Shown here: one piece after another, positions 10,698 to 31,215 of the stretch
Position numbering within the stretch: position 1 is the stretch's first letter
How the letters are laid out: every line of letters starts with the position of its first letter
Notes under the pieces: model-generated
Databases searched by the model: none
Told to the model about the DNA's origin: nothing
What the model saw: only the letters and a program-made list of their open reading frames with translations
Position numbers and translations under genes: made by a program
Source of the DNA: an uncultured Saprospiraceae bacterium
GTDB lineage: Bacteria > Bacteroidota > Bacteroidia > Chitinophagales > Saprospiraceae
Assembly: GCA_937924145.1 (NCBI GenBank)
Contig: CALDTJ010000110.1
Span: forward strand, 1 to 50,936
DNA: 50,936 nucleotides
Direction of reading: 5' to 3'

Positions 10698-10711
10698 AAA
10701 TCTCTTTTGTC

Positions 10712-11901: not shown

Positions 11902-12085
11902 AAAAATGGACGTATTAGGGTGCCCCCCTGATAGATTCAACACCTTTAGTGATGATGAAAATTTGATAGTCCATCACTTACATTTTGCTTAGCTGCTGCT
12001 CTGAAATCAGTCGTACTGGATTCGAAAAGTAGCTTAGAAAAATGTCGGACTTAATTTTCATGATTGCCTAATATAACTTTTTGTT

Positions 12086-15000
12086 ATGCCAAACAATTAC
12101 TGGTTTAAGACCTTATTTTTCCTCCTTGCTACCTTTATTGTAGGAAAAGTAGATGCACAAGTAAAATTCAAAGTAGCCCTTTCCCCTGATAGTACTTTCT
12201 ATCAAGTGTCACTCCTTTCCGAGATCGGCCCATTTTTCGCTTCATCACAGAATTTTGTCCCTACCGCTACGGTAACATTGATTGCTCCTACGGGAGAATT
12301 GACACCAGCCTCCATTGCTAATCAAAAAGGGATTTGGTCAGGACCAGACACTTATATTAATCCAGTAGGTGGACTAGATCAGGATTATTTTGTGTTTTCT
12401 CTTAATGGAGCGGTAAATGACATTGTTTTTACCCCTGGCTTAGAGGTTGACTTATTCACTTTTACCAATTCGGGCAATTGTGCGGGTGCGGTAGAGTTGA
12501 TGGATAATGACAATGATCCTTTTAGGGAACAAGACCCTACGGCGAATGTCGGTAATCACATTACGGTTTTTGGTAATGGACAAGGTAATTCCTATGGTGG
12601 GATACACGATCCACGGAGTGCTAACTGTATGGGTTTTCCACCTTGTAATTTAACGATTGGGAGTGTAACAAAAACAGATATTTTGACTTGTGGAGCCGAT
12701 GATGGTAGCATTACAATTAATGCCACAAATGGTACGGGTACCCTCGAATATAGCATCAATAACGGACTTAATTGGTTCACTACCAATACCTTTAATAATT
12801 TAGCGATTGGCAATTATACGATAATTGTGAAAGACGATAATTGTGAACAGACTTATGATACCAATCCCGTGACTATTTTGGAGCCAAATATTGCGGTCAC
12901 CTTGACGGATAGTTTGCCTCCTTCTTGTAATAGTTCTTTGGACGGTCAAATAACGGTTGCTGCCAGTGGTGGAGTAGCCCCTTATGAATATAGTATTAAC
13001 AACGGCGCAAATTGGACTACCAATGGCGCTTTTACTAGTTTAGGCAATGGTATTTTTAATATCAAAGCTAGAAATGTAGATAGTACTTGTGAGACGAGTT
13101 ACCCGAATGCAGTTGTTTTTTCTACTCAAGGCATTAATTTAACCCTTGTCAAAACAGATATTTCGTGTACGAATGGTACGAATGGCACTATTTCTATCAC
13201 TGCGGAAGGAGGAATGGGTAGTTTTCAATACAGTATTGACAATGGTGTAACTTGGTTAGCCTCTGCTAATTTTACAGATTTGGCTGCTGGAAATTATATG
13301 GTGCTTGCAAGAAATAGCAATGGCACCTGTGAAGTCGCTTTTGAAGGCAACCCTGTGGTAATTAGCGAAAGTGCGCTGAATTTTACAGTCACTCCAACTG
13401 ATCCAGATTGTAATGGTGTAGCCGACGGAACCATCAGTATTGATCTTACGGGCGAAACGAGTAGTTTTGAATACACTATTGATGATGGAACGAATTGGGT
13501 AACGAATGCTACATTTTCTAACCTTGATATAGGAGCTTATACCATCAAAGTTAGAAAAGTCGGTGGTACTTGTGAAACAGCTTTCTCTAATAATCCAGTT
13601 GTTTTAGATCGGCAGATGATTAATATTTCTGTTAGCACCTTTGCTGGCGGATGTGATGATGGAATGACGAACAGTATCACGGTAGCTGCATCTGGAGGAA
13701 ATGCTAGTTTCCAATACAGTAAGGATGATGGTGCCACTTGGCAAAACTCTAATATCTTCAATAGTTTAGCCAACGGAGACTATACGATTAAGGTCAGAAC
13801 CACTGATTTATCTTGTGAAACGGCTTTTGTTAATAACCCTGTTTCTTTTGCTTCTAGTGCCATCAATGTTGGTGTTAGTTCCAGTCCTCCTGCTTGCCAT
13901 GATTTATCAAATGGAAGTATCACTGTGACGGCTAATGGTGGAACGGGTAGTTTTATTTATAGTATTGATGGTGGGGCTAATTACTCCAATTTGACCAACT
14001 TTACTGGTTTGGCAAATGGGAACTATAATATTTTTGTCAAAAATGCAGACGGTACCTGTGAAACCGAATATCCAAACAATCCTATTCAGTTTAATACGAC
14101 AGCAATTTCCTTTTCCGTTTCCGAAAATCAAGCATCTTGCTTAGCTGCGACTGATGGGAGTATTTCGATGTTAGGAAACGGAGGATCAGGTAGTTATGAA
14201 TATTCTATTGATAGCGGAATGACTTGGAGTGCGGTCGCTACTCAACAAAATTTAGCTGCCGATTTATACTATGTATTTATTAGAAGTGACAATCAAAACT
14301 GTGAGCTTGAATTTGCTAATAATCCAATAGATTTACGTCCAGATGCTTTGACTATCAGCATTGTTTCGAATACACCTCCTTCTTGTGAAACGGGTAATGA
14401 TGGGAGTTTAGTTTTAGCTGCCGCTGGTGGTGGAAGCACCAATTACCAATATTCGATTGATGATGGAGCGACTTACTCAGGCATGAGTACTTTCCAAAAT
14501 TTATCAACAGGAGATTATAATTTAAAAGCTAAAATAGCAGGAACGGATTGTGAGGTAACTTACGTGAATAATCCAGTTCGAGTTGAGAACTTCAGCTGTG
14601 AACCACCTCCTCCAGTTGATTCTTGCTTTTTGAGATATGTCCTTACGGAAAATGAAGGTGTTTACACTATTTCTTTAGCTACAGATACGACTTGGTTAGG
14701 ATTTTCTGCGACGACTTCTAATGCGCAGGTTTCTATCCGAGTACCAACAGGTGGTTTTTCTATAGCCAATTTCACTAATAAAATCGGAGGGGTTCAATTT
14801 GGGCCAGCAGGTTTTTCTATTAACCCTTCAGAGGCAACGGGTTTTGACTTTTTTACTTTCAATTTACAAGCTACTACCATCAGTATTCCTTATATAAAAG
14901 GAGATACCGTTGAGCTATTTAGTTTTGAAAATAGTGGTACTTGTACAGGTGGTGAAATGTACCTCATTGGTGACGAAGGAGTGAGTGATCCTGGTGTTGC

Positions 15001-18000
15001 TAACACCAATTTTGAGTCACAGATTACGGTAGCAGGTTGGGGTGGTCCCGATGCACCGATTTGTAATTCAAGTGATCCTGTGGAGGTTTGTTTACCACCT
15101 CCGCCTTGTGTAGCTGAATTCGTTTTAGCAGAGAATAATGGAACTTTTACTGTTGGAATGATTCCAGATACTACTTGGGCGGCTCCTTTGAATACGGTAA
15201 ATAGCGCACAGATTACGCTAAGAATGCCAGCTAAGGGCTACCAAATCGAGAATTTCCAAAATGCGAATAGTCAAGTTCAATTTGAGGTAACTAGCCGTTT
15301 AAATAGTCCTGCTGTGGATGTTGGATATGATTACCTGAGTGTTACCTTAAACTCATTTGGGACAACCAATATTCCATTTAGTAAAGGAGTGAAAACCGAC
15401 TTGTTTAGTTTTGAAATCAATGGTGGATGTTCAACTGATAGCATCGCTTTAGTTGGAGATGGCAGTCTGTTTGATTTTCCAAATGATGAGGATGATAACG
15501 TTACGGCTCAAATGACCGTAGCAGGTTGGGGTGGTCCAGACCTACCCGTATGTGTTCAATCGGCTCCAATGCCAATTTGTACTTTAGGTATTGACGGAGT
15601 TACGGTAACCGATGTAACTTTCTGTGGAGCAAGTGATGGTACGATCACAATTACGGCTACTTGTGCAGGAGATCATACTCGATATAGTGTCGATAATGGT
15701 CGATCTTATCATGCTAATCGAACCTTTACGAATTTATCAGCAGGAAATTATTTTATTAGACTATACAATGATTCGACAGACTGTGAGGTGATTTATAATG
15801 CAAATCCAGTAGTTGTCAATGATGGTGCTGCTATCAATTTCACAGCTACGGCTATTGCGCCAACTTGTGCGGATAGTTCCAATGGGTCAATTACCATAGT
15901 AGCGAGTAATGGAAGTGGCAATTTTCAATATAGCATTGATGATGGTAGAATGTGGTCTACTACGGCTACTTTCACTGGTTTGATTAATGGAAATTATAAT
16001 TTAAAAGTCAGTAATTTAGATACGACTTGTATCACGACTTATGATACGACCTTTTTGACAATTAGCAGTTTACCTTGTGATTTTGATTCTGATAATGATG
16101 GAACCCCTGATTTAGCGGAAGACTTGAATATGGATGGAAATTTAGATAATGATAATACAGATGGAGATGAATTTCCAAATTATCTAGATGACGATGATGA
16201 CAATGATGGTATTCTGACAGCACTGGAAGAGGCAGGGCCAAATGATGGAGATGCCAACGGTGACGGTCAACCAGATTGCCTACAAGCCAACGTAGCGACT
16301 ACCCAAGATGATGGTGGGGCTTTCCGAACATTAGAGGTGAGTGGAGATGGAGCAACTTGTGACCGAATTATGGATTTCATCATTCACTCAGAAGGAGATA
16401 TGAGTGAAAATGATCCTAATTATGATTTCCCTTTCCAGTTAAATGCATTTACGATTCCTTGTGGCGGTACCGTTAATGTTCAGTTGTTTTACCACAATGT
16501 AACCAACCTAGCTGATTTTACCTACCGAAAATTTGGCCCAATGACGCCAGGAGGAGCAACTTCCGAATGGTATGATTTTCCAGTGACCATTTCGCAAGTT
16601 GCGATTGGTGGAAATACGATTGGGAGCGTAGCATTTCAGTTGACGGATGGACAACGAGGGGATGCGACGATTGTTGACAATATGATTGTAGATCCAGGGG
16701 GAATTGCAATGGATGTCAACGCAGGAGCAGATTGTGCAATTAGGTATAATCTAGTAAAAACAGGTGAGATCTACGAAGTTAGTCTAACTAGCGATACGAC
16801 CATTTCACCTAATAATATCAATGATTTAGCGATTACCTTAAGAGCGCCAACAGGTATTTTGACAGTAGGCAATATCGTGAATGCCAGTGCGAATGTGCTA
16901 TTTGAATTAGACACCACTTACACTGCACCAACGGAGTCACCTAATTACGACTATTTGGTTTTCAAATTAAGTCCTGCATCGGCTAACACTACTAATATTG
17001 ATATTTTTCAAGACAATACAGAATCATTATTTTCTTTTGAAAATGTCGGTGCTTGCTCCAATGATTCCTTATTTTTAGTAGGAATGGGAGCTGACTTTAC
17101 AGCACCAACTATCAATGGACAAGACATTTCTTCTAGTATCAATATCAATGGTTGGAACGCGCCTACTTGTGTTTCAAATGCTGGAGGTGCTTTATGTTTG
17201 CCTGCTCCAAGAGATACCGTTTTAGTTGATTTATTTGCGGGCTTACCGACGACGATTTGTTTAGACTCGGAGATTCAACTGCCTAATGGAGTTGGAAACA
17301 CCTCCGTATTATTCCAAGGGACGGCAGTAACGGCTGCAACTTCTAATTCAGATAGTTGTGTGCTATTCATGCCGCAAAGTACTTTTACTGGGACCGATTT
17401 TGTGACCGTTGTTTTTTGTGATAATGTGAACTCTAGTATTTGTGATACAACGACTTTTAATATTACGGTCGCAGCTCAACCAACTTGTTTAATCAACTAT
17501 TTTGTAGAAGATTCTTTAGGCAAATACAAGTTTAAGATGGTGAGTGACACCACTTGGAATATGCCACAAAATGAGGTCATTTCTGCCCAATTTACCATTA
17601 GAACCCCTACGGGATCTTTTGAGATGACCAATTTGCAGAATGGTATTGGAGTCGTAGATTTTGATCTACAAACAACAACTTCTCAAGGTGGTTACGACTA
17701 CCTGAATATAGTCTTACAAACGGTCAATACCTTAGATATTCCATTTATAAAAGGAGATACGATTTGTTTATTTAGTTTTGAAAATGGAGGCGCTTGTACC
17801 AATGATAGTCTCTATTTAATTGGTCAAGGCAGTCCTGTTTCTGCTCCGACAGTAGGAGATGAGCCAATTTTCTCGAAGATGGCAGTCCAAGGCTGGGGTG
17901 GAGGCACGACTTCTGTACCTGCTTGTGTGATGGGGACGGGGGTGCCTATTTGCCCAATTACTGCACCTGAAACGCAGACGATCAATCTCACTTTGAATCA

Positions 18001-21000
18001 AGATGAAACGGTAGCAGTATGCATTGATTCCGTTCTACAATTATTAAATAATGTAGGAACAGTCACAATTTGCGATCAAGGGACTAATATTTCAGTAGCA
18101 GTTACGAATAATGATAGTTGTGTAAATATAACTACCGCATCAGATTTCGTAGGAACTGAGACCTTATGTGTAGTACACTGCGATGCCTTCGAAACAGGTC
18201 ATTGTGATACGACTTATTTTATGGTGACGGTCATCGAGCCTACACCAGAACCAGTTACTTGTTTATACGAATACATTATCGAAGAATCGAATGGAGTTCA
18301 TACCGTTCGATTAGCGGTTGATTCGACGATAGCGGCTCCGTTCAATGCGACTAGTTCAATGCTAGTGGCAATTAGAGTGCCGACAACAGGTTTTAATGTA
18401 CCAACCGATAGCATCACTTCATTATTACCTGGTGCTATATTTGAAAATACGTCCAATGGGGTATTTATGGATAATGAAGAGCCTGATTTTGGATATATTT
18501 ATTTTGATATAAATGGTGCAGTCTCTCCTAATTATCAGCAAGGAGATACGTTAGATTTGTTCTCTTTTAGAGTAGAAGGCTGTATAGGTGGTGATATTCA
18601 CCTAGTAGGAACAGGAGCTAATTTTGCAAACCCAATGGTCAATGGAGAAGAAATTACTTCTTATTTAGCGATTGGGGCATTTTTAGCGGATGGCGGTGCG
18701 CCTTCTTGTGTGAATCCAGTAGGGACGACTATTTGTACTCCTGTTGTTCCGCCTACGCCAGCACCACAAGACACTTTACAGTTCGTCTTAGATTTTGAAA
18801 CAGCGGCTACGGTTTGTATAGATTCCGCTATACAATTATTGACCAATGTAGGAACTGCAAGTATTTGCGGACAAGGTACGAATATAACAGTTGGAGTAAC
18901 TAACGGCGATTCTTGTATTACCTTAACCCCAGCTACTAATTTTTCTGGTACTGAAATGCTTTGTGTTGTTCATTGTGATGCAGGAACTCCAGACTATTGC
19001 GACACCACTATTTTGATGGTAACGGTGAATCCAAATGATGGAACACCTCCACCACAACCACCATCAGAAGATACGACTTGTCATATAACTTTTGAATTAG
19101 AATTAGTGGATGGAACCTATACTGTTAGTTTCACACCAGATACAACTATACGGAACGTCATACCTGTAATTCCTAATCCTTTTACCAATTTGATGGAGAT
19201 AACTTTAAGAGCGCCTACGGGCAAATTAAATATAGTCAATCAAGTCGATTTTGGTACTGGAAGAGAATTTGTGTTAAAAAGATTCATCATCAATCCATCA
19301 GAAAGCTTAGGTTACGATTATTTTACTTTTGGTTTGAATGAGAACAACTCAACAACCGTAGATATTTCTTACGTTCAGGGTATTAAAACCGAATTATTTA
19401 CTTTTCAAAATTTTAATTGTGCGTTGGACAGCATCGCTTTAGTCGGAAAAGGAAGTCCGTTTACCACACCATTGATTAGTGATGAAAATATTGAATCTGT
19501 TGCACAAGTGAATAGTGCAAATTTAATTGTTTGTGTTTCGCCAGATGCGATTACGCCACCAGCTTTGGCGTTTTCGTCTACGAATACAGCCCCAACTGCG
19601 GGTGTTTGTAACGATGGAACGATTACGATTACAGCAACGGGTGGAACAGGCATTTACGATTATAGTATTGACGGTGGAAGCACTTGGCAATTCAACGGCA
19701 ACTTCTCTAATTTAGAAAATGGTACTTACCAAACCTTAGTTAGAAGTAGTGATTCTCTTTGTATTGGTACAGCCCAATCGGTCACTTTAAATACGGCAGA
19801 TTGTGGTCAAGTTGGCCCAGTTTGTAATGTTGTTCTTACCAGCATTGACACCGTTAATGCGACTTGTAGTCAACCTGACGGTAGGATTACGATCAATGCA
19901 ACGGGAGATAATTTAGAATACAGTATCAACACTGGCGCAACTTTCCAAAACAGCAATATTTTTGAAAATGTAACTGGTGGTATTTATAATATTGTAGTCC
20001 GAGATTCGGTAGAAACGACCTGTGAGGTCAATCAAACCATCACTTTGAATGGCACCCAATTGCCTGATATTCAAAATGTTATCATTAGTGATTCTGCTGA
20101 ATTTGCAAATGGAGCAGGGATCATCACCATTTTTGCCACAGCTAATTGTGAGGTACAATACAGTATTGATAATGGGCAAACATTCTTCCCTGGCAATTCA
20201 TTTACCACGCTTGGCGTAGGTACTTATAATATCGTTGTGACGGACTGTAGTGGTCTATGTCCAATTAATTATTTGAGTAATCCAATTATAATCGAAGAAC
20301 CACCAGTTTGTACTGTGAATGCAGGAGCGGATAGAACAATTTGTGCAGGTGCAGCGATTGCTTTATCAGCTACTGGCACAGGTTCGACATTCAGTTGGGC
20401 ACCAACCGATGGTTTAAGCTGTACGGATTGTCCAAATCCTATTGCTAATCCAATGACTACGACAACTTATGTGGTGACAAATAATGATGGCAATTGTACG
20501 GCTACAGATACCATCATCGTCAATGTAGCACCAGCGATTACTGCTGATTTTGTCTTTATGACAAGTTGTACTGATCTATCGGTTGTTTTCACGGATAGCT
20601 CTGCTTCTACTGCCAATATTACTGCTTGGTCGTGGGATTTTGGAGATGGAAGTGCATTGAATACTGAGCAAAATCCAAATTATACTTACTTGGCATCTGG
20701 CAGTTATACCGTCAGTTTGACAACTACAATTGAGGGAGATTGCGAAAATACAATTTTTAAAACAGTAGAAGTTGGAAATGGATTAATGGGTACGATCAGC
20801 GATGATTTATCTATTTGTACAGGTGATTGTACCACTTTGATGGCATCGGGTGGAACGAATTATGCATGGGCAGCATCACCAGATTTGAGCGCCTTGGATA
20901 TTCCAAATCCAATAGCATGTCCAACTCAGACAACAACTTATTACGTCACCATTTCTGATGATAATGGATGTTCAACGATGGATAGTGTCACGATTACGAT

Positions 21001-24000
21001 TGATGCACCGACCCTTGGAGTTTCTGCCTCGGGCGCAGCTTGCGATCAAGACAATGGTTCGATTACCGTTTTCGCATCTTTCCCGAATGGTGGCCCACTT
21101 GAATTCCAAATAGTAGATAATGATGAATGGTTCACAGAAAATAGCTTCACAGGTTTAGCGTCAGGTACTTATAACGTTCGGATTAGAACGGCAGACGGTG
21201 GTTGTATCACTTCTTTTGATGGCAATCCAGTGATAATTAATCAAGTGCAAGGCCCAACGATTGACGATGTTTCTGCAAAGAATCCAACGGAATGTAATAC
21301 TGCCACTGGCGAAATTTTATTGACGGCTTCTGGGTCTAATGCCTTGATTTATAGTATTGATGATGGGACCACTTGGAGTCCTTCTCCTTCATTTACGGAT
21401 TTAAATGAGGGTGTTTATGATATTCGCATCGCTTATGCCGATACTTCTTGTTTGACTCCTATTAGAATGGTGGAATTAGTTGCACCAACTGCGCCAAATA
21501 TTCTTGGTGCTACAAAAGAAGATCCTTCTACTTGTGAAAGTACGGACGGTCGAATTTTTGTTTCGGTTGAAAATGGAGCGAGCCAACCATTTGAATATAG
21601 TATTGACGGGACAAATTGGCAAACAGACAGTGTAATAAATAATTTAGCTGCTGGAACCTATGCTGTTTTTGTAAGGTATAGCGACGAATCCTGTGTAACT
21701 GAATTTAATACACCAGTAACATTACAACCGGGTGCTGGACCAAATATCTTATTTGCCTTTGGCGAAGACCCAACGACTTGTGAAAGTATGGACGGTCAGA
21801 TTACCGTTTCAGTAGAGGAAGTGACTGGGAGAGCATTTGAGTACAGTTTAGATGGCATTGACTGGCAGGCAGAGCATGTATTCGATAGTTTAGCTGCTGG
21901 CCAATACGATATTTTTGTTAGATACGATGATGGTACTTGTGTGACTCAGTGGGATATTCCAGTAGAAATACAACCTGCTGCTGCACCATTTATCAACGAT
22001 GTGGCGAGTATCAATCCAACAGGGTTTGACTTAGCAGATGGAGAGATTTTTATCAATGCTTTTGGCAGTAGCGATATTGAATATAGTATTGACAATGGAG
22101 ATAACTGGCAAACAAATCCAGATTTTGTAGGCTTAGATACAGGTAGTTACACCATTCTAGTTCGATATACTGATGGAAGTTGTGAAACGCCTTATTTAGG
22201 AAATGGCGGTGGTCCAGTTATTCTAAGAGTAGGAGATTGCTTGAGATTTATTGAAGTCATTGGAAATAATCCACAAGGTTGTGGATCGAATGATGGAAGT
22301 ATTTTCACTATCGTAGAACCATTTGGTAATGTTGAATACAGCATCAATAATGGAGCAGATTGGCAAGATTTTGAAGTTTTTGAAAATCTCGGCGCAGGGA
22401 CTTACAACATTTTAGCTCGTCGAACGGATATTGCTTGTCAAATTGATACCACCATTACGTTAGGAGAAGGCGAAGATTTAGAGATATTTAGTGTAGACGC
22501 TATTGACAAAGATCTTTGTAATAATTTCGGTGGGGAGATTTTTATTAATACCAATATTTTTAATAATATCGAATTTAGTATCGACAATGGAGCGAATTGG
22601 CAAGCCAATAATTTATTTAGTAATGTAGATACTGGCACTTACACCATTTTGGCAAGAAGCCTAGATTTAATTTGTCAAGCAACTTGGGATCAACCTGTCG
22701 TGGTTCGACCAGTACCAACTGCGGATATTACAAATGTTTTGGTTGGAAACCCAACGAGTTGTGGCAATTTAGACGGTTCCATTATTATAGAAACAAACTT
22801 TGGTTTTAATACTGAATATAGTATTGATAATGGCGCAACTTGGCGTTTTGATAATCAATTTTTGAACCTACCTTCTGGGAATTATACTGTAAAAATAAGA
22901 ACGGGAAGTTGTGAAGTAGACTACGTCAATAACCCAGTTAATTTGGGTGCAGCGAATGGTTTTACCGTGGTAGATCCTATTCCAAACGCAGCGACTTGTA
23001 CTGGCACTTTGATGTCATTGTCCGTTACCTTAAGTGATAATATTAGTAGTTGGTTGGTCAATAATGGAAGCATTACTAACCCTAATATAAATGGCGCTAC
23101 GCTAACTTTTGACGCCGTAGTCGAAGGTTTATTTAATGAATATGAGTTAACCTTCACAAATTCAATAGGTTGTGAAGTGACTGAATCCTTTGTTATTTTC
23201 CAAGCGGATGATACCGAAGCAGACTTCGTAGTGATTGAGCCTTACTGTAAAGAAATGGAAGTTTCGCTTCTATTTACAGGTACAGCAACACCGATGGCGA
23301 ACCTAATTTGGGAAGTTGATGGCGGTGTACTAGTTTCTAGTTCACCTGCTACTGATACGGAACCAGCAGGCAACGAAATCGTCGTTCGGTGGGACAACGA
23401 AGGTAGTCGATTAATCAAATTAACGGTTGATGATGGTGGCTGCATAGACGACGAATACGAAAGTATTTTTGTCAGAAAATTACCACTAGCCAATGCTGGT
23501 GAAGATGTGTCCATCTGTATGAGTAATTGTACGCAATTGGAAGGAACTGGAACGGGTGTTTGGTACTCATGGAGTCCTGCAACGGGACTAAGTTCGCCAG
23601 ATGTACAAAATCCAATCGCTTGTCCAACCGAAACAACGACTTATACCTTGACGGTCATGAGTGCGGACGGTTGTGTATCGACGGATGAAGTAACGGTCAA
23701 TGTAGAAACGAATTTCATTACGACAGGCCCAGATGTTACGATTTGTGAAGGCGAATCGGCAAATTTAAGTGTGACAGGTGCGAACAATTATACTTGGACT
23801 TCTGCCATGACCTTAGATAATCCAACGTCCCCCAATCCAGTAGCCACACCTGTAGAAACAACGACTTATAGTGTCTTTTCTATGAATGAAAATGGTTGTA
23901 TGGATACGGCAACGGTAACGGTCTTTGTGAATCCATTGCCAGAAGCAGTCGCTTGCGAGGATAAGACGATTTGTAGAGGAGATAGCATTCAATTGATTGT

Positions 24001-27000
24001 GACCACTTTTGCCCAATACAGTTGGAGTCCAACGAATACTTTAATCAATCCAACGAGTGGAACGCCAATCGCATTCCCTACGGAAACAACCACTTATACG
24101 GTAACTGTTACCGATGAATTTGGCTGTACAGATACAGACGAAGTAGTCGTATTTGTGAATACACCACCAACGGTTACAGCAAGTGCGGATGTGGATATTT
24201 GTGCGGGTGCATCCACGAGATTAAATGCGTCGGGTGCTAATGCCTATGTTTGGTCACCAATCGTAGGATTAAGTAATCCAAACTTATCCAATCCAATTGC
24301 AACGCCTTTAGTTACAACGACTTATACGGTAACTGGAACAGATGCCAACGGCTGTACGCACACGGATCAAGTGACCGTAAATGTGGTAGAAAACGCTGGC
24401 ATCTCAGCAGGTTTGCCAACTACAATCTGCGAAGGCGAAACGACTCAATTAGTAGCAACAGGTGGCACAAATTACCAATGGTCACCAGCAACGGGCTTAA
24501 ATAGCACCAACATCGCTAACCCAATAGCTAATCCGACGGTAACGACGACTTACACTTTGACGGGTGTCAGTGCCAATGGTTGTCCATCTATTTCTACCTT
24601 AACGGTTACGGTTTTACCAAAACCAGAACCAGTGGCTTGTGAGGATAAAATGATTTGTCTAGGCGATAGCATCCAATTGATTGTGACCACTTTTGCCCAA
24701 TACAGTTGGAGTCCAACAAATTCTCTAATTAATCCAACGAGTGGAACACCAACCGCTTTTCCAACAGAAACAACTACTTATACGGTTACTGTGACGGACG
24801 AAAATGGCTGTACCAATACTGACGAAGTTACTGTCTTTGTAAATAATCAGAGTGCAATTGCTTTAGGTCCAGATATTACCCTTTGTGAAGGTGGTCCAGT
24901 ACCACTAGATGCAGGTACAGGTATTGCCTACGAATGGATTCCAAGCACTGGTTTGAGTGATCCAACGATTAGAAATCCGATTGCTACTGTAAATAGCACG
25001 ATTACTTATACAGTTTTAGTGACGAACCAGAGTGGTTGTATTGGTAGAGATGAAATCACGATTACCGTGAATGGTGCGCCGAATGCAGATGCTGGCCCTC
25101 CAGTGGTAATCTGCCCAGGCGAAACGGGTCAATTACAGGCATCAGGCGGAGTGAGTTACCAATGGAGTCCAACGGATGGATTGAGTAATCCAAATATCGC
25201 AAATCCATTTGTTACCACTGACCGAGTAACGACTTATCAAGTGACTGTGACCGATGAATTTGGTTGTACCTCAACGGATGAAACTTTAGTAGCAGTCTCT
25301 TTACCATTAATGATAGATCCTGTGATTACCGATGCCACTTGTTGTGGAACGGGCGGTATGGCAGCATTGAACGTTTCAGGTGGTTTTGGTAATGCAACTT
25401 TTGAGTGGTCGCCCAATGTATCGACTACCAATAGTGCGACTAACCTAACCCCAGGTTTTTATAAAGTGGTCATCGAAGATGCTGAAAGATGTGGATTAGT
25501 TTTCACTTTTGAAATAAAAGAAGATTGCAACGGTTGTCCAGATATGTTCGCTGAAAATGAGCGATGTATCAACGATACGTCCAATACAGAAAGAATCTGT
25601 TTACCAATCGCTTTAGAAGATATTGGTAATTACGAAATATTAGTTGATGGAAATGATTACAATCCAGATCACGGTTGTGATTTTGAGAACTTGACCGCTT
25701 ATTCTTATGCCTTGGTAGAAGGGCAGGGGACAACGGGCATGTACAGAGTCGAAAACTGGGAAGTCAATGGTCAAATGTACGCAACGGAAGTAGAAACCAT
25801 GCAAGAATTGACCAATTGGATGAATACCGTAGACCCTACTGGAAACTGGATCAATAACTCCTCAATTGTAACGATTATTGGTGGAAACCCTAATAACGCT
25901 TACGGTACGATGAAGGTGATTCAATTAACCAAATGGGTAGAAACGATGCTTCAACCTGATGTAACAGGCGTGGCGACGAGTACGGTTCTAGAAATAGATG
26001 TAACTGGTTTGACAGACCCGAGAACAATCATTATTACCAATGAATTGACTTGTTGTTCAGATACCATTATCCTAAGACGATGTGGTCAGGCACAACCTTG
26101 TGTAGAAGAAGTCATTGCCCAAAATCAATTTAATGAAAGTATTACTTGTGGCGAAACGGCTAGTATTTGTCTAGACATTCCATTCAGCAATATTAACAAC
26201 TTTGAGGTAGTGGCAAATGACAATCTTTATGCAGGAGAAATCAAGGCTTGTAATTTCGATTCGATGTTTGCCTACACTTACTTCACTTTACCGGGAAGAG
26301 GTGCGGCTGGCCCTTATCGAATTAACTCCTGGTTGATTGATGGACAAATGAATTCAGGGATGTTTAACGACCTCGGTGATTTTGTCGCATTGATGAATCA
26401 AATAGACCCATCAGGAAATTGGATTTTAGATGAATCAACTTTGACCCTGCAAGGTGGAAAATCTACTACCGACTACGGTGAAATCAAAATCGAACAAATC
26501 GCTACGGGTTCTATTGCCACTTTAGAAATCAATTCTAACCTCATTCCAATGGGCACGGAATTGACTTTCACAAATGGCAATTACGAAGTATTATTCATTA
26601 ATAAAAATACAGGTTGTCAAGATCGGATTTTAGTCAATGTGTCTTGTGATGATACCCAAACGCCAATTGATACTACGATGAATCCTGTGGATACGATGAT
26701 TACGCCAATTGACACGACGACGAATCCTGTAGATACGATGGTCACGCCAATTGACACGACGATGAATCCTGTGGATACGATGGTCACGCCAGTAGATACC
26801 ATGACGAATCCTGTGGACACGATGGTTACGCCAGTTGATACCACGACGAATCCTGTGGACACGATGGTCACGCCAGTTGATACTACGATGAACCCTGTGG
26901 ATACGATGACTGAAATATCTTGTGATTTCCTCACCGATGATGTCTTATTTGCTACGGTGAATCGCTGTGACTCGATGGTTCAGTTCTGTTTAGATATTCC

Positions 27001-27991
27001 TTATGCGACGATCAATGATTATCGAATTTATATTGATGGACAAGTTTATGGCGGTGCTTTAAGTAGTTGTGGTACAAATACTTATGTAGAAGTAGGAGTA
27101 GGCGGCTATAATTTCAAATTTGAAAATCTAGTAACCAATTGCCAAGATAGCATCATCCTAGCTGTCACCTGCGCTACGAACGCAAGAGAAGAAATAATTG
27201 AATTGGTAGAAGGCGATACGATGATCTATTGTCCTCAATCGGAGAATCTAGTCGGAGATATTATTTCCATCGAAAATACTTGTCCAGCCGAGTCGGGTAC
27301 GATTGCTACTGTCGAATTAGATACCGAAGATTTCTGTGTGAATGTAGTTGGTTTAGTGGAAGGAGAGGAAAGTGCTTGTTTTGTAGTCTGTGATGCCAAT
27401 GGCGTTTGTGATACGACCAATGTAACGATTCTAGTAACGCCAAAATCGGTAGAAACGCCTATAGCCAACTTAGATATCGATACAACGGAGCAATTCTCTC
27501 CAATCACAATAGATGTCTTAGCCAATGACAGCATTTTTGGAACATTGGAAAATATGGAAATCCTAGAAAAACCACAAAATGGTACAGCAGTCTTCAATGC
27601 GGACAATACCATTACCTATACGCCAGACGAAACGTTCTGTAATTCAGTAGCACCAGATTTCATCATGTATGGCATTTGTAATGAAAATGGCTGTGATACC
27701 GCTATGGTAGAAATTTTAGTTCCATGTACGACCTTAGAAATCATGAACGGATTTTCTCCAAACAATGATGGCATCAACGACTTCTTCACCGTCAAAGGCA
27801 TTGAAGCATTCCCAGAAAATGAAGTGCAAATCTTTAACCGTTGGGGAACACTAGTCTTCAAACAACAAGGCTACAAGAACAGATGGGATGGTACTTTTGA
27901 TAATCAACTCTTGCCAGATGGTACGTACTTCTACTTAATTACGGTAGGCGAAGGAGAGAAATATTCTGGCTTTGTTCAGATTAATAGATAA
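12086..27991 (+). CDS. Giant (5301 aa) mosaic cell-surface protein with a T9SS type-B (gliding-motility-associated) C-terminal sorting domain; SprB-like adhesin class
   Basis: A single uninterrupted ORF in the track. It has a signal peptide (MPNNYWFKTLFFLLATFIVGKVDAQ) and about 21 SprB-like ~80-aa repeats of the form C..DG.I.....GG.....Y.YSID.G..W......F..L..G.Y...V.....C. It also has 7 copies of a ~155-aa module, an Asp-rich TSP3-like segment, a PKD domain, and 10 repeats of ~72-76 aa (C.G....L.A.G...Y.WSP..GLS....NPIA.P..TTTY.VT...GC). Near the C-terminus are two full copies plus a truncated third copy of a ~180-aa Cys-rich module and a 14-aa x6 linker. The C-terminus NGFSPNNDGINDFFTVKGIEAFPENEVQIFNRWGTLVFKQQGYKNRWDGTFDNQLLPDGTYFYLITVGEGEKYSGFVQINR is typical of the CHU_C / type-B CTD. 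Confidence 0.9.
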   Translation: MPNNYWFKTLFFLLATFIVGKVDAQVKFKVALSPDSTFYQVSLLSEIGPFFASSQNFVPTATVTLIAPTGELTPASIANQKGIWSGPDTYINPVGGLDQDYFVFSLNGAVNDIVFTPGLEVDLFTFTNSGNCAGAVELMDNDNDPFREQDPTANVGNHITVFGNGQGNSYGGIHDPRSANCMGFPPCNLTIGSVTKTDILTCGADDGSITINATNGTGTLEYSINNGLNWFTTNTFNNLAIGNYTIIVKDDNCEQTYDTNPVTILEPNIAVTLTDSLPPSCNSSLDGQITVAASGGVAPYEYSINNGANWTTNGAFTSLGNGIFNIKARNVDSTCETSYPNAVVFSTQGINLTLVKTDISCTNGTNGTISITAEGGMGSFQYSIDNGVTWLASANFTDLAAGNYMVLARNSNGTCEVAFEGNPVVISESALNFTVTPTDPDCNGVADGTISIDLTGETSSFEYTIDDGTNWVTNATFSNLDIGAYTIKVRKVGGTCETAFSNNPVVLDRQMINISVSTFAGGCDDGMTNSITVAASGGNASFQYSKDDGATWQNSNIFNSLANGDYTIKVRTTDLSCETAFVNNPVSFASSAINVGVSSSPPACHDLSNGSITVTANGGTGSFIYSIDGGANYSNLTNFTGLANGNYNIFVKNADGTCETEYPNNPIQFNTTAISFSVSENQASCLAATDGSISMLGNGGSGSYEYSIDSGMTWSAVATQQNLAADLYYVFIRSDNQNCELEFANNPIDLRPDALTISIVSNTPPSCETGNDGSLVLAAAGGGSTNYQYSIDDGATYSGMSTFQNLSTGDYNLKAKIAGTDCEVTYVNNPVRVENFSCEPPPPVDSCFLRYVLTENEGVYTISLATDTTWLGFSATTSNAQVSIRVPTGGFSIANFTNKIGGVQFGPAGFSINPSEATGFDFFTFNLQATTISIPYIKGDTVELFSFENSGTCTGGEMYLIGDEGVSDPGVANTNFESQITVAGWGGPDAPICNSSDPVEVCLPPPPCVAEFVLAENNGTFTVGMIPDTTWAAPLNTVNSAQITLRMPAKGYQIENFQNANSQVQFEVTSRLNSPAVDVGYDYLSVTLNSFGTTNIPFSKGVKTDLFSFEINGGCSTDSIALVGDGSLFDFPNDEDDNVTAQMTVAGWGGPDLPVCVQSAPMPICTLGIDGVTVTDVTFCGASDGTITITATCAGDHTRYSVDNGRSYHANRTFTNLSAGNYFIRLYNDSTDCEVIYNANPVVVNDGAAINFTATAIAPTCADSSNGSITIVASNGSGNFQYSIDDGRMWSTTATFTGLINGNYNLKVSNLDTTCITTYDTTFLTISSLPCDFDSDNDGTPDLAEDLNMDGNLDNDNTDGDEFPNYLDDDDDNDGILTALEEAGPNDGDANGDGQPDCLQANVATTQDDGGAFRTLEVSGDGATCDRIMDFIIHSEGDMSENDPNYDFPFQLNAFTIPCGGTVNVQLFYHNVTNLADFTYRKFGPMTPGGATSEWYDFPVTISQVAIGGNTIGSVAFQLTDGQRGDATIVDNMIVDPGGIAMDVNAGADCAIRYNLVKTGEIYEVSLTSDTTISPNNINDLAITLRAPTGILTVGNIVNASANVLFELDTTYTAPTESPNYDYLVFKLSPASANTTNIDIFQDNTESLFSFENVGACSNDSLFLVGMGADFTAPTINGQDISSSININGWNAPTCVSNAGGALCLPAPRDTVLVDLFAGLPTTICLDSEIQLPNGVGNTSVLFQGTAVTAATSNSDSCVLFMPQSTFTGTDFVTVVFCDNVNSSICDTTTFNITVAAQPTCLINYFVEDSLGKYKFKMVSDTTWNMPQNEVISAQFTIRTPTGSFEMTNLQNGIGVVDFDLQTTTSQGGYDYLNIVLQTVNTLDIPFIKGDTICLFSFENGGACTNDSLYLIGQGSPVSAPTVGDEPIFSKMAVQGWGGGTTSVPACVMGTGVPICPITAPETQTINLTLNQDETVAVCIDSVLQLLNNVGTVTICDQGTNISVAVTNNDSCVNITTASDFVGTETLCVVHCDAFETGHCDTTYFMVTVIEPTPEPVTCLYEYIIEESNGVHTVRLAVDSTIAAPFNATSSMLVAIRVPTTGFNVPTDSITSLLPGAIFENTSNGVFMDNEEPDFGYIYFDINGAVSPNYQQGDTLDLFSFRVEGCIGGDIHLVGTGANFANPMVNGEEITSYLAIGAFLADGGAPSCVNPVGTTICTPVVPPTPAPQDTLQFVLDFETAATVCIDSAIQLLTNVGTASICGQGTNITVGVTNGDSCITLTPATNFSGTEMLCVVHCDAGTPDYCDTTILMVTVNPNDGTPPPQPPSEDTTCHITFELELVDGTYTVSFTPDTTIRNVIPVIPNPFTNLMEITLRAPTGKLNIVNQVDFGTGREFVLKRFIINPSESLGYDYFTFGLNENNSTTVDISYVQGIKTELFTFQNFNCALDSIALVGKGSPFTTPLISDENIESVAQVNSANLIVCVSPDAITPPALAFSSTNTAPTAGVCNDGTITITATGGTGIYDYSIDGGSTWQFNGNFSNLENGTYQTLVRSSDSLCIGTAQSVTLNTADCGQVGPVCNVVLTSIDTVNATCSQPDGRITINATGDNLEYSINTGATFQNSNIFENVTGGIYNIVVRDSVETTCEVNQTITLNGTQLPDIQNVIISDSAEFANGAGIITIFATANCEVQYSIDNGQTFFPGNSFTTLGVGTYNIVVTDCSGLCPINYLSNPIIIEEPPVCTVNAGADRTICAGAAIALSATGTGSTFSWAPTDGLSCTDCPNPIANPMTTTTYVVTNNDGNCTATDTIIVNVAPAITADFVFMTSCTDLSVVFTDSSASTANITAWSWDFGDGSALNTEQNPNYTYLASGSYTVSLTTTIEGDCENTIFKTVEVGNGLMGTISDDLSICTGDCTTLMASGGTNYAWAASPDLSALDIPNPIACPTQTTTYYVTISDDNGCSTMDSVTITIDAPTLGVSASGAACDQDNGSITVFASFPNGGPLEFQIVDNDEWFTENSFTGLASGTYNVRIRTADGGCITSFDGNPVIINQVQGPTIDDVSAKNPTECNTATGEILLTASGSNALIYSIDDGTTWSPSPSFTDLNEGVYDIRIAYADTSCLTPIRMVELVAPTAPNILGATKEDPSTCESTDGRIFVSVENGASQPFEYSIDGTNWQTDSVINNLAAGTYAVFVRYSDESCVTEFNTPVTLQPGAGPNILFAFGEDPTTCESMDGQITVSVEEVTGRAFEYSLDGIDWQAEHVFDSLAAGQYDIFVRYDDGTCVTQWDIPVEIQPAAAPFINDVASINPTGFDLADGEIFINAFGSSDIEYSIDNGDNWQTNPDFVGLDTGSYTILVRYTDGSCETPYLGNGGGPVILRVGDCLRFIEVIGNNPQGCGSNDGSIFTIVEPFGNVEYSINNGADWQDFEVFENLGAGTYNILARRTDIACQIDTTITLGEGEDLEIFSVDAIDKDLCNNFGGEIFINTNIFNNIEFSIDNGANWQANNLFSNVDTGTYTILARSLDLICQATWDQPVVVRPVPTADITNVLVGNPTSCGNLDGSIIIETNFGFNTEYSIDNGATWRFDNQFLNLPSGNYTVKIRTGSCEVDYVNNPVNLGAANGFTVVDPIPNAATCTGTLMSLSVTLSDNISSWLVNNGSITNPNINGATLTFDAVVEGLFNEYELTFTNSIGCEVTESFVIFQADDTEADFVVIEPYCKEMEVSLLFTGTATPMANLIWEVDGGVLVSSSPATDTEPAGNEIVVRWDNEGSRLIKLTVDDGGCIDDEYESIFVRKLPLANAGEDVSICMSNCTQLEGTGTGVWYSWSPATGLSSPDVQNPIACPTETTTYTLTVMSADGCVSTDEVTVNVETNFITTGPDVTICEGESANLSVTGANNYTWTSAMTLDNPTSPNPVATPVETTTYSVFSMNENGCMDTATVTVFVNPLPEAVACEDKTICRGDSIQLIVTTFAQYSWSPTNTLINPTSGTPIAFPTETTTYTVTVTDEFGCTDTDEVVVFVNTPPTVTASADVDICAGASTRLNASGANAYVWSPIVGLSNPNLSNPIATPLVTTTYTVTGTDANGCTHTDQVTVNVVENAGISAGLPTTICEGETTQLVATGGTNYQWSPATGLNSTNIANPIANPTVTTTYTLTGVSANGCPSISTLTVTVLPKPEPVACEDKMICLGDSIQLIVTTFAQYSWSPTNSLINPTSGTPTAFPTETTTYTVTVTDENGCTNTDEVTVFVNNQSAIALGPDITLCEGGPVPLDAGTGIAYEWIPSTGLSDPTIRNPIATVNSTITYTVLVTNQSGCIGRDEITITVNGAPNADAGPPVVICPGETGQLQASGGVSYQWSPTDGLSNPNIANPFVTTDRVTTYQVTVTDEFGCTSTDETLVAVSLPLMIDPVITDATCCGTGGMAALNVSGGFGNATFEWSPNVSTTNSATNLTPGFYKVVIEDAERCGLVFTFEIKEDCNGCPDMFAENERCINDTSNTERICLPIALEDIGNYEILVDGNDYNPDHGCDFENLTAYSYALVEGQGTTGMYRVENWEVNGQMYATEVETMQELTNWMNTVDPTGNWINNSSIVTIIGGNPNNAYGTMKVIQLTKWVETMLQPDVTGVATSTVLEIDVTGLTDPRTIIITNELTCCSDTIILRRCGQAQPCVEEVIAQNQFNESITCGETASICLDIPFSNINNFEVVANDNLYAGEIKACNFDSMFAYTYFTLPGRGAAGPYRINSWLIDGQMNSGMFNDLGDFVALMNQIDPSGNWILDESTLTLQGGKSTTDYGEIKIEQIATGSIATLEINSNLIPMGTELTFTNGNYEVLFINKNTGCQDRILVNVSCDDTQTPIDTTMNPVDTMITPIDTTTNPVDTMVTPIDTTMNPVDTMVTPVDTMTNPVDTMVTPVDTTTNPVDTMVTPVDTTMNPVDTMTEISCDFLTDDVLFATVNRCDSMVQFCLDIPYATINDYRIYIDGQVYGGALSSCGTNTYVEVGVGGYNFKFENLVTNCQDSIILAVTCATNAREEIIELVEGDTMIYCPQSENLVGDIISIENTCPAESGTIATVELDTEDFCVNVVGLVEGEESACFVVCDANGVCDTTNVTILVTPKSVETPIANLDIDTTEQFSPITIDVLANDSIFGTLENMEILEKPQNGTAVFNADNTITYTPDETFCNSVAPDFIMYGICNENGCDTAMVEILVPCTTLEIMNGFSPNNDGINDFFTVKGIEAFPENEVQIFNRWGTLVFKQQGYKNRWDGTFDNQLLPDGTYFYLITVGEGEKYSGFVQINR
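16076..16279 (+). other. Asp-rich calcium-binding (thrombospondin type-3-like) segment of the giant protein
   Basis: CDFDSDNDGTPDLAEDLNMDGNLDNDNTDGDEFPNYLDDDDDNDGILTALEEAGPNDGDANGDGQPDC, with reiterated DxDxDG motifs. Confidence 0.65.
20535..20775 (+). other. PKD domain of the giant protein
   Basis: ADFVFMTSCTDLSVVFTDSSASTANITAWSWDFGDGSALNTEQNPNYTYLASGSYTVSLTTTIEGDCENTIFKTVEV, containing the WDFGDG...H/YTY motif. Confidence 0.8.
26660..26911 (+). repeat. In-frame tandem repeat of six 42-bp units (twelve 21-bp half-units) encoding TP(I/V)DT(T/M)x-NPVDTMx
   Basis: Translation: TPIDTTMNPVDTMITPIDTTTNPVDTMVTPIDTTMNPVDTMVTPVDTMTNPVDTMVTPVDTTTNPVDTMVTPVDTTMNPVDTMT. The antisense ORF at 26617-26934 in the track is its mirror image. 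Confidence 0.95.
27733..27988 (+). other. T9SS type-B C-terminal sorting domain of the giant protein
   Basis: The last ~85 aa, from LEIMNGFSPNNDGINDFF to GFVQINR. Confidence 0.85.
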
Positions 27992-28000
27992 TATGGATGC

Positions 28001-28048
28001 GGTGGGCAGTGGGCAGTAAATCAGTAGGCAGTGAGGCAGTGGGCAGTC
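28001..28048. repeat. Degenerate direct reiteration of the word GGCAGT(G/A)
   Basis: ggtgggcagtgggcagtaaatcagtaggcagtgaggcagtgggcagtc. The ggcagt word also appears at 49446-49455 and in the hairpin at 50713-50744. Confidence 0.8.
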
Positions 28049-28184
28049 AACGTCTAAGCACACGACCTATATTGAATGTCCTGTAAGTATGACCTAGGAA
28101 AATCTCCGATAAAATCGGAGTTGTAAACCTGTCATCCTGTATAATCTTGTCATCCTGTAAAATTTAAGGTGTTTTTTGGCAAAT

Positions 28185-28460: not shown

Positions 28461-28481
28461 ATAAACCTTGAAGTAGGATTA

Positions 28482-30624: not shown

Positions 30625-31215
30625 TTATATCTCCCCATTAACCCCCCGAATAAACTCCATAATCTCCGTCCGCCCCTCCTTCTGAATAGAAGAAGTAATA
30701 AACTCCTGCGGCAACTCATCCCAATGTTCCAATAGGGTAGTGCGAATCCGATCAATATTAGGCTGGACCTCAGCAGGCTTTAAGCGATCTGTTTTGGTGT
30801 AAACGATAATAAAAGGCACTCGCTTATCTCCCAACCAATTCATAAAATCAATATCAATTTGTTGAGCGGGAATATTGGCGTCGATTAAAACAAAAGCACA
30901 GGCTAAGGTTTTTCGGTGTTGCAAGTAGCCTTCAATCATGATTTCCCACTCTCTTCTTTTCTTTTTGGAAATTTTCGCATAACCATACCCTGGTAAATCG
31001 ACCAAATACCATTCTAGGTCCACCAAGAAATAGTTAATCATTTGCGTTTTTCCTGGCTTTTTGGAAATTCTCGCTAAACCATTTCTTTTCGTTAGCATAT
31101 TGATTAACGAAGATTTCCCTACATTCGATCTTCCAATAAAAGCATATTCTGGCCTTTGGTCCTTTGGACATGAAGTGATGCTTGGGTAACTGCCTACATA
31201 TTTTACGTCTAGCAT
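30625..31215 (-). CDS. engB: Ribosome-biogenesis GTPase YsxC/EngB
   Basis: 196 aa with G1 GRSNVGKSSLIN, G3 DLPGYG and G4 TKTDR. Confidence 0.9.
   Translation of the reverse strand: MLDVKYVGSYPSITSCPKDQRPEYAFIGRSNVGKSSLINMLTKRNGLARISKKPGKTQMINYFLVDLEWYLVDLPGYGYAKISKKKRREWEIMIEGYLQHRKTLACAFVLIDANIPAQQIDIDFMNWLGDKRVPFIIVYTKTDRLKPAEVQPNIDRIRTTLLEHWDELPQEFITSSIQKEGRTEIMEFIRGVNGEI

Follow-up and report, generated by a model that had tools for sequence, protein, structure and literature searches.

Giant type-B T9SS substrates are known in Bacteroidota as surface fibres used for gliding, for sticking and, in Aureispira, for prey capture. [quoted passage not shown] GhpA from Aureispira sp. CCB-QB1 (PDB 9flp; bioRxiv 10.1101/2024.01.29.577165) is a 5,898-aa "grappling hook" that assembles into heptamers and has an N-terminal hook module (residues 26-1402) and a long stem of Ig_7-type repeats, and the genes ghpB (PorP) and ghpC (PorE) lie directly downstream. 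In general, cargo of type B remains attached to PorP-like carriers (PMC9143113, PMC12635249), and SprF in particular needs a periplasmic Cys-X-Cys tail for coupling to the GldK track (PMC12635249). For triads of a CTD-B protein, an SprF-like protein and a PorE-like protein, a link to static anchoring at the cell wall has been described in F. johnsoniae and P. gingivalis, and orphan type-B substrates that rely on an unlinked shuttle are known from the former (PMC12618676). A porP/sprF-like gene lies directly downstream of 9 of the 12 type-B substrates in F. johnsoniae and is thus usual rather than obligatory. For true pairs of substrate and carrier, structure prediction is reported to give ipTM > 0.8 (PMC12618676). 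How orphan type-B substrates find their outer-membrane carrier is a subject whose study has only just begun.

The window that we analysed, a 50,936-nt contig from an uncultured member of the Saprospiraceae (the abundant marine family that contains Aureispira), holds a natural case of an orphan giant. It encodes an unusually large, otherwise ordinary member of this known class of adhesins, the expected kind of gene in the expected kind of genome, without the usual adjoining partner gene. The single 15.9-kb ORF of the original prediction is open throughout, and the mature protein would have a mass of ~560 kDa and a pI of ~4.0 (features in Table 1). Its N-terminus, MPNNYWFKTLFFLLATFIVGKVDA followed by Q, reads in the translation as the Sec signal peptide that had been claimed, and it is well defined because an in-frame stop lies 9 nt 5′ of the ATG. 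The extreme C-terminus scores as the type-B sorting domain that had also been claimed (TIGR04131, 71.9 bits against a cut-off of 35; PF13585, 100.2 bits against 27), while the type-A model reaches only 25.5 bits. Given that the signal peptide, the type-B CTD and porP-gldKLMN are all present in the window, the giant is a predicted cargo of this T9SS, as originally proposed, and its sequence places it almost certainly among the type-B cargo.

Table 1. Features of the giant gene and of its surroundings, by position in the window
Feature	Position	Strand	Basis or remark
Giant gene, 5,301 aa	12086..27991	+	ATG start
Sec signal peptide, aa 1-24	12086..12157	+	read from translation; predicted cleavage between VDA and Q
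modA copy 1, distal N-terminal tip	12158..12622	+	self-HMM
SprB-like block 1, 8 repeats	12653..14596	+	Pfam, self-HMM
modA copies 2-4	14618-15085, 15101-15574, 16727-17191	+	self-HMM
SprB-like block 2, 2 repeats	15587-16075	+	Pfam, self-HMM
Asp-rich stretch, five DxDxDG-type motifs	16076-16285	+	motif reading
Choice-of-anchor-U domain	16412-16708	+	profile match
modB copy 1, ~100 aa, 6-8 Cys	17192..17491	+	self-HMM
modA copies 5-7	17480-17947, 18254-18730, 19073-19555	+	self-HMM
modB copies 2-4	17948-18265, 18731-19069, 27164-27469	+	self-HMM
SprB-like block 3, 3 repeats	19568-20305	+	Pfam, self-HMM
Ig_7 - PKD - Ig_7 cassette	20309..21007	+	Pfam, self-HMM
SprB-like block 4, 8 repeats	21011-22957	+	Pfam, self-HMM
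Unassigned 175-aa stretch	22958..23482	+	top conservation among orthologues, 78-82% identity
Eight tandem Ig_7 repeats	23483..25303	+	self-HMM; homologous to Aureispira GhpA stem repeats
Degenerate 22nd SprB-like repeat, aa 4409-4480	25310-25525	+	self-HMM
modC copies 1 and 2, Cys-rich, ~190 aa each	25526..26701	+	self-HMM
PVDT[TM]xT heptad linker	26681..26914	+	42-nt x 5.9 DNA tandem array at 26660-26908
modC truncated third copy	26921-27145	+	self-HMM
Big_9 Ig-like domain, ahead of CTD	27455..27715	+	Pfam
Type-B T9SS sorting domain, aa 5218-5301	27737..27988	+	TIGR04131, PF13585
Terminator-like hairpin, ~190 bp past stop codon	28182..28212	+	consensus match only
yihA/ysxC GTPase gene	30625..31215	-	between giant and porP here and in relatives
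Core PorP, first gene of porP-gldKLMN	31720..32691	+	NCBIfam, above cut-off; candidate giant carrier
gldK	33334-34635	+	NCBIfam, above cut-off
gldL	34930-35526	+	NCBIfam, above cut-off
gldM	35690-37336	+	NCBIfam, above cut-off
gldN	37601-38497	+	NCBIfam, above cut-off

In its size, signal peptide, type-B CTD and company of gldKLMN, the giant resembles SprB, and the commonest of its modules is the SprB-type repeat itself (Pfam SprB PF13573, 195 bits; cut-off, 28), with about two cysteines per copy. The ~21 such repeats of ~80 aa that had been predicted in four blocks were recovered by a self-HMM as 8, 2, 3 and 8 copies, with the degenerate repeat as a 22nd. In contrast to SprB, about half of the giant consists of other modules, namely modA, modB, modC, Ig_7, PKD and choice-of-anchor-U. 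The predicted PKD domain scores 50.7 bits with PKD_4, and the ten ~74-aa WSP repeats, which the self-HMM also counts as ten (~75 aa, two of them flanking PKD and eight in tandem), match the Pfam family Ig_7 ("CHU_C associated"). The original prediction overlooked a further type of repeat, modB, with four copies, as well as the choice-of-anchor-U and Big_9 domains. Its calcium-binding Asp-rich stretch is there as far as the five motifs go, but none of the calcium-binding families in Pfam matches it.

Toward the C-terminus, the Cys-rich module that had been described as two full copies and a truncated one is counted by the self-HMM as 2.4 copies of modC. This module recurs elsewhere, with a single homologue returned by a word-indexed search, but its AF2 model is poor (pLDDT 68, pTM 0.43), and Foldseek with this poor model as the query gave no fold match below E 0.17. 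The linker had to be both moved and renamed: it lies between the second copy of modC and the truncated copy rather than after the latter, and it is not rich in sequons, given that N-x-S/T occurs 86 times in the giant against 84.5 expected. What recurs in it is D-T-[TM], found in every PVDTxxT heptad, such that the two 100-aa bins holding the linker contain 13 of the 63 motifs of this type in the whole protein. The linker is rich in D[ST][AILVMT], the Bacteroidota O-glycosylation motif.

The seven ~155-aa modules of the original prediction were counted again as seven copies of modA, scoring 151-225 bits with their self-HMM. No Pfam or NCBIfam match was obtained for modA, four of the copies found no Pfam family at E <= 5, and comparison with the Pfam Cohesin/CBM families gave no sequence match. 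A word-indexed search found no homologues, and an exhaustive profile search placed the family in 581 clusters among 1.84 billion representatives. Wherever checked, these other proteins are always T9SS cargo, and some of them, of ~278 aa, carry nothing but modA between a signal peptide and a type-A CTD. An AF2 model of modA built from a seven-sequence alignment (pLDDT 77, pTM 0.80) found cohesins as its top Foldseek matches (E 4e-4, TM 0.42-0.54), followed by CBM3 and CBM2, and we therefore predict a cohesin/CBM-like fold, to which the similarity is modest. Like cohesin and CBM3, modA is predicted to be a beta-sandwich, of nine to ten strands, and would repeat along a surface-anchored scaffold; unlike them, it reaches a TM of only ~0.5, has neither a Pfam-level match nor an identified dockerin-like partner, and is found elsewhere as a single module joined to a type-A CTD. 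Both modA (~580 protein clusters) and modC are uncatalogued families and candidates for domain databases.

On the 5′ side of the giant, genes for a TPR protein, a DUF4292 protein and an M23 peptidase are followed by a 1.5-kb spacer, and on its 3′ side come two small uncharacterised ORFs, a Uma2 gene and yihA. The gap to porP is 3.7 kb, with ~2.6 kb of extra low-GC DNA in this window. The original prediction named this PorP as the sole PorP/SprF homologue of the window, and we found no second one; as a cognate partner of the giant, however, it is weakly linked, because yihA stands between the two genes on the opposite strand and porP-gldKLMN is conserved regardless of the giant. In fact, the operon was present in all 16 of the loci compared from Saprospiraceae, other Chitinophagales and other Bacteroidota, with or without a giant. 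Canonical cognate sprF-like genes, for example those in L016, L021, L022, L025 and L026, start ~10-220 bp downstream of their substrate and on the same strand. We searched all frames of positions 27900-31800 with an HMM built from 11 PorP sequences, and no PorP-like sequence was found (best E 0.23). The small ORFs at 28482-29428, whose combined ~315 aa would match a PorP in size, were considered as a frameshifted sprF and rejected, being negative with the PorP HMM, Pfam and NCBIfam. The giant is thus an orphan type-B substrate: no sprF-like gene follows it, whether intact or decayed.

Known orphan type-B substrates share this arrangement with the giant, and among them both an unlinked shuttle and an operonic core PorP as the anchor have precedents, but they are much smaller proteins, and there is no PorE-like gene in the window of the giant. 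The PorP at hand ends in ...GKGKLPKIIFNPRYIE and has cysteines nowhere but in its signal peptide; the mature protein therefore lacks the Cys-X-Cys tail of SprF. An exact-sequence look-up of this PorP returned no database record. The giant and porP are syntenic in five of the seven informative relatives. We do not take this synteny as decisive proof of a functional pair, since the giant is missing upstream of yihA/porP in L001 and L009 and the orthologue in L020 sits in another neighbourhood. Nevertheless, the presence of the giant near the core porP in most, albeit not all, near relatives makes it testable whether the core PorP carries the orphan.

On balance, it seems somewhat probable that the giant is a statically anchored, ~560-kDa, strongly acidic, disulfide-rich modular adhesive fibre secreted as an orphan type-B T9SS cargo. 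It would cross the inner membrane via Sec, be recognised by the T9SS through its type-B C-terminal domain and stay held by that domain on an outer-membrane beta-barrel of the PorP/SprF family, so that the N-terminus would project outward. Scaling from GhpA suggests a fibre roughly 200 nm long, with a stalk of ~50 small beta-sandwich modules (SprB-like, Ig_7, PKD, modB and Big_9) that also includes a heptad spacer, probably with O-linked glycans. Binding would most likely fall to the seven cohesin/CBM-like modA copies, one of them at the very tip, and we infer that the fibre would let the cell adhere to particles, algae or other cells and would not serve track-driven gliding. Two carriers come into question, namely the core PorP without cysteines that is encoded 3.7 kb downstream and an SprF-like protein from an unlinked gene; one with a Cys-X-Cys tail could be encoded elsewhere in the genome. 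The evidence at the sequence level leans towards a static fibre because the mature PorP has no cysteine while SprF needs its Cys-X-Cys tail, and because the closest relatives of its CTD whose gene context is known (44-54% identity) belong to the CTD-B/SprF-like/PorE-like triads. It is also conceivable, albeit improbable, that modA represents a hitherto undescribed family of cohesin/CBM-like binding modules specific to T9SS cargo and that the giant is a sevenfold capture fibre or scaffold docked statically on the core PorP. If true, this would amount to a ring-proximal static anchoring in marine Saprospiraceae that is distinct from both SprB/SprF and GhpA/GhpB/GhpC.

A different possibility, which we consider unlikely but by no means far-fetched, is that this bacterium has in the giant its mobile gliding adhesin of the SprB type, propelled over the cell surface to drive gliding and carried by an unlinked SprF-like protein. 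Such a carrier would be disulfide-bonded to the GldK track. The 21-22 SprB repeats, with their high Pfam score, are what one would expect of a gliding adhesin, but the non-SprB modules make up about as much of the protein. Likewise, the size is comparable to that of SprB, the CTD is of type B and gldKLMN is present, whereas a downstream sprF is absent in any form and the genes for the TPR protein, the DUF4292 protein and the peptidase stand upstream in place of an sprC/sprD-like operon. SprB-attributed gliding has been described for the related Aureispira, and orphan type-B substrates in F. johnsoniae do get to the gliding machinery by an unlinked shuttle; in the present case, however, the only PorP in reach is cysteine-free, and the closest CTD relatives with known context pair with PorE-type static anchors.

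Very unlikely, in our view, is that the giant is a GhpA-like multimeric grappling hook, that is, a rigid prey-catching fibre (ixotrophy) of several protomers aligned side by side through their Ig_7 arrays. The two proteins come from the same bacterial family, are similar in size (5,301 aa in the giant) and are both probably O-glycosylated, and relatives of GhpA have been reported as widespread in related Bacteroidota. The Aureispira analogy drawn in the original prediction held at the domain level for the Ig_7 array, which aligns with 9flp_A, the solved chain of GhpA (E 3e-117), but failed for the N-terminal half. In that multi-domain search, the terminal Big_9/CTD cassette also aligned, with 71 bits between the C-terminal 203 aa and the C-terminus of GhpA. 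The same 203 aa searched alone against the PDB found no match and did not recover GhpA, an outcome that we attribute to the whole-target filters of HMMER, and we treat the similarity at the CTD level as weak; these alignments suggest that the C-terminal half of the giant probably has the Big_9/CTD cassette in common with GhpA. The N-terminal 2,500 aa show no detectable similarity to any PDB chain, GhpA included, and the hook module is therefore absent. Furthermore, Ig_7 is a generic "CHU_C-associated" domain, its array is far shorter in the giant (eight tandem and two other repeats, while matches in GhpA span from about residue 1130 to 5670), and no homologues of ghpB and ghpC lie directly downstream.

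Turning back to the statically anchored fibre, orthologues of the giant are present in no fewer than four further Saprospiraceae assemblies, with the module order fully or partly kept. They are 54-63% identical, and the order of modules is the same in L002, L003 and L008, the last of these on the 844-kb contig CBDICY010000001; in L004 and L007 it is kept in part, and in L020 the orthologue is fragmented. Independent assemblies did not yield the N-terminal half, except for two modA copies in L002, and a metagenome scan with the N-terminal 850 aa gave only SprB-repeat relatives with at most 30% identity. Inside the ORF, the DNA of the repeats does not exceed 88% identity and no exact repeat is longer than 44 nt, which makes an assembly artefact unlikely. 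That the long ORF reflects a chimeric assembly or a gene in decay, with no such protein made, is barely credible: the source does appear to be metagenomic, genes full of repeats tend to collapse in assembly, and the L020 orthologue is split into many small ORFs, but that breakage is consistent with the error rate of an assembly at 3x long-read coverage, whereas here one open reading frame runs from a canonical signal peptide to an intact CTD, and three independent assemblies have uninterrupted orthologous ORFs that share the module order and extend for 2,714-2,939 aa up to the edge of the locus. Minor observations from the locus are that an Rfam scan of the whole window gave 0 families at the gathering score and that the D-T-[TM] heptads are kept among the orthologues while the length of the linker varies.

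The protein encoded by the giant ORF belongs among the giant type-B T9SS adhesins, a kind already known and labelled in public sources as [quoted passage not shown]. What is mildly new is that two of its own repeat modules, modA and modC, are absent from catalogues (no Pfam or NCBIfam model matches modA), that SprB-type repeats are combined in a single chain with repeats of the type found in GhpA, the Aureispira grappling-hook protein, and that the core porP repeatedly, though not universally, has an orphan giant for a neighbour. The translation has no internal stops, and only 9 nt separate the ATG from the start of the stop-to-stop frame, which fixes the N-terminus, by its sequence a typical Sec signal peptide (MPNNYWFKTLFFLLATFIVGKVDA|Q). 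Repeats were counted by searching the giant again with HMMs made from its own repeats (self-HMM). The counts bear out the original prediction of an uninterrupted 5301-aa ORF with a signal peptide, about 21 SprB-like repeats in four blocks, seven ~155-aa modules, a PKD domain with ten WSP repeats, two full and one truncated Cys-rich copies and a type-B C-terminal sorting domain (CTD); modB had been left out of that list. Together, the listed modules cover ~95% of the residues.

Features of the giant, its surroundings and two comparison loci (window positions unless marked)
Feature	Position	Strand	Details
Giant ORF	12086..27991	+	ATG start, 5,301 aa; mechanical ORF list
modA			~155 aa; n=7; self-HMM, 151-225 bits per copy
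SprB-like repeats			~80 aa; n=21, blocks 8, 2, 3, 8; self-HMM; Pfam SprB, 195 bits
Degenerate 22nd SprB-like repeat	aa 4409-4480		self-HMM
WSP (Ig_7) repeats			~75 aa; n=10, 2 flanking PKD and 8 tandem; self-HMM; match Pfam Ig_7 ("Ig-like domain CHU_C associated")
PKD_4			Pfam, 50.7 bits
modC			~190 aa, Cys-rich; 2 full copies and 1 truncated; self-HMM
modB			~100 aa, 6-8 cysteines; n=4; self-HMM
Choice-of-anchor-U domain	aa 1443-1541		NCBIfam
Main piece without family	aa 3625-3799 (22958-23482)		175 aa
Big_9			Pfam; directly N-terminal to CTD
CHU_C			Pfam, 100.2 bits (cut-off 27)
TIGR04131, type-B sorting domain			NCBIfam, 71.9 bits (cut-off 35)
Second large ORF	2-4486	-	at least 1,495 aa; PKD domain; continues past left end
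TPR protein, DUF4292 protein, M23 peptidase genes	upstream of giant
Spacer	10591-12085		1.5 kb; no ORF of 100 aa or more; several hairpins
GCGACTTTAGTCGC pairs	8320-8408, 11853-11895, 34743-34786		intergenic
Terminator-like hairpin	downstream of giant
Low-GC gap, giant to yihA	27992-30624		~2.6 kb extra DNA, ~31% GC
Two overlapping ORFs without family	28482-28841, 28832-29428		downstream of giant
Uma2-family nuclease gene	29786-30580	-
yihA	between Uma2-family gene and porP	-
porP-gldK-gldL-gldM-gldN	beyond yihA (porP 31720-32691)	+	all above NCBIfam cut-offs
Type-A sorting domain protein	44130-45233	-	367 aa; Por_Secre_tail, 51 bits
L016 (Chitinophagaceae contig), two textbook pairs	699-5719, 6727-12262 of L016		~1,500-aa type-B CTD protein and sprF-like gene
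L024, distant homologue of C-terminal cassette	947-4633 of L024		47% identity over Big_9 and CTD

Two descriptive terms of the original prediction stand only in part. The Asp-rich stretch is present, with five DxDxDG-type motifs, but none of Pfam's calcium-binding families scores there, so that calcium binding can only be inferred. The "sequon-rich" linker exists as a PVDT[TM]xT heptad array (42-nt period, 5.9 copies at the DNA level), but N-x-S/T is not enriched in the giant. The heptads contain D-T-[TM], which matches D[ST][AILVMT], the motif for O-glycosylation in Bacteroidota; this motif occurs 63 times in the whole protein, against 31 +/- 5 expected from composition, and 13 of the 63 sit in the two 100-aa bins holding the linker.

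On balance, we lean towards a static adhesive fibre, ahead of a mobile adhesin, a GhpA-like hook and an artefact. The giant would be exported by Sec and would fold and form disulfides in the periplasm; the SprB-like repeats have ~2 cysteines each, which fits disulfide-stabilised folding there. The CTD is of type B and T9SS genes are present; the domain would be recognised, and the giant would pass through the T9SS and be retained on a PorP/SprF-family barrel, C-terminus proximal and modA1 distal. The stalk may comprise ~50 beta-sandwich modules, and, on the scale of GhpA (5,898 aa spanning 240 nm), the giant would be near 200 nm long. Near its base, the heptad spacer could be glycosylated, as described for GhpA in the literature, and variable in length, while the seven modA modules would allow multivalent binding. 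Among the nearest CTD relatives whose context could be read (44-54% identity), most lie in CTD-B / SprF-like / PorE-like triads, an arrangement linked in F. johnsoniae and P. gingivalis to static anchoring at the cell wall.

Structure prediction by module type, as originally proposed, gave a beta-sandwich for modA (AF2, pLDDT 77, pTM 0.80), whereas modC was modelled poorly. The best structural matches of the modA model are cohesins, followed by CBM3/CBM2 modules (E 4e-4, TM about 0.5), which suggests that modA may be a binding module. Its family, 581 clusters among 1.84 billion representatives, includes ~278-aa proteins that consist of nothing but signal peptide, modA and type-A CTD, as well as multi-module type-B proteins; one of these, P0002, has seven modA copies and is likewise an orphan. 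Similarly, modC recurs elsewhere, for instance in P0086, beside modB, Big_9 and the CTD.

Given its SprB-like repeats, the giant might instead be a mobile SprB-type adhesin, which we consider distinctly less probable. SprF ties SprB to the moving GldK track via an invariant Cys-X-Cys in its periplasmic tail (PMC12635249). The window's PorP (81-89% identical to that of nine MAG contigs) and its orthologues end in ...GKGKLPKIIFNPRYIE, and its cysteines are confined to the signal peptide; were this PorP to carry the giant, propulsion by the disulfide mechanism would be impossible. Exactly one PorP-family sequence occurs in the window, as originally claimed, and no PorP remnant was found between the giant and yihA.

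The pairing with this PorP that the original prediction implied is weak, not only for want of the Cys-X-Cys. The porP-gldKLMN operon is kept in 16/16 retrieved loci (Saprospiraceae, Chitinophagales and other Bacteroidota), giant upstream or not, and thus this is the core T9SS PorP; furthermore, yihA intervenes on the opposite strand, making co-transcription impossible. Synteny is variable: of the close relatives with sufficient upstream sequence, L002, L003, L004, L007 and L008 have the giant 1.2-1.9 kb ahead of porP, whereas L001 (closest PorP, 89% identity) and L009 lack it there, and in L020 its orthologue (62-75% identity over modC and Ig_7) adjoins unrelated genes. In canonical pairs (L016, L021, L022, L025 and L026), both genes share a strand and PorP_SprF starts ~10-220 bp past the type-B CTD gene, with an annotated PorE-like gene after it in L021, L025 and L026; L016, our reference for an adjacent cognate pair, has sprF-like genes beginning within ~15 bp of the CTD gene end. 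Nevertheless, the type-B protein PG1035 of P. gingivalis has the core PorP as its anchor (PMC9143113), and F. johnsoniae orphan type-B substrates rely on an unlinked shuttle (PMC12618676), so the core PorP stays a legitimate, if doubtful, candidate carrier. In L024, an opposite-strand GTPase gene (bipA) and then a divergent PorP_SprF gene come after the CTD-B gene, a likeness to the window's layout that may be coincidence.

The analogy with Aureispira raises the possibility of a GhpA-like multimeric hook, which we regard as improbable. The C-terminal half of the giant matches the solved GhpA chain (9flp_A, E 3e-117, PDB search) across homologous Ig_7 repeats, and a multi-domain search adds the terminal Big_9/CTD cassette (71 bits), although a PDB search with the C-terminus alone missed GhpA. 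Unlike GhpA, the giant has no hook module, given that its N-terminal 2,500 aa match no PDB chain.

An interrupted or artefactual ORF, considered originally, is unlikely, and an artefact is the reading to which we give hardly any weight, as the internal repeats have diverged in DNA (at most 88% identity; longest exact direct repeat, 44 nt) and orthologues (54-63% identity) in independent assemblies of related uncultured Saprospiraceae, one on an 844-kb contig, run without interruption for 2,714-2,939 aa, as far as the fetched loci reach. Independent support for the N-terminal half consists of two modA copies in L002. The C-terminal order is common to all: SprBx3, Ig_7, PKD, Ig_7, SprBx7-13, the 175-aa stretch, Ig_7x8, one SprB-like repeat, modCx2, heptad linker, truncated modC, modB, Big_9 and CTD, with differences only in the counts of SprB repeats and linker heptads. 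No other part of the C-terminal half is as well conserved among orthologues as the 175-aa stretch (78-82% identity).

The low-GC segment between the giant and yihA is particular to the window and probably an insertion, the same gap being only about 170-380 bp in the five relatives with the giant upstream of porP. No Rfam family matches the spacer upstream of the giant. The palindrome GCGACTTTAGTCGC, one pair of which precedes the giant's ATG by ~190 bp while a second sits in the gldK-gldL spacer, has 10 matches with up to two mismatches (0.04 expected) and looks like a REP-type element or shared operator. The C-terminus of the second large ORF, hence any CTD, lies outside the window, while the 367-aa protein is predicted to be a further T9SS cargo.
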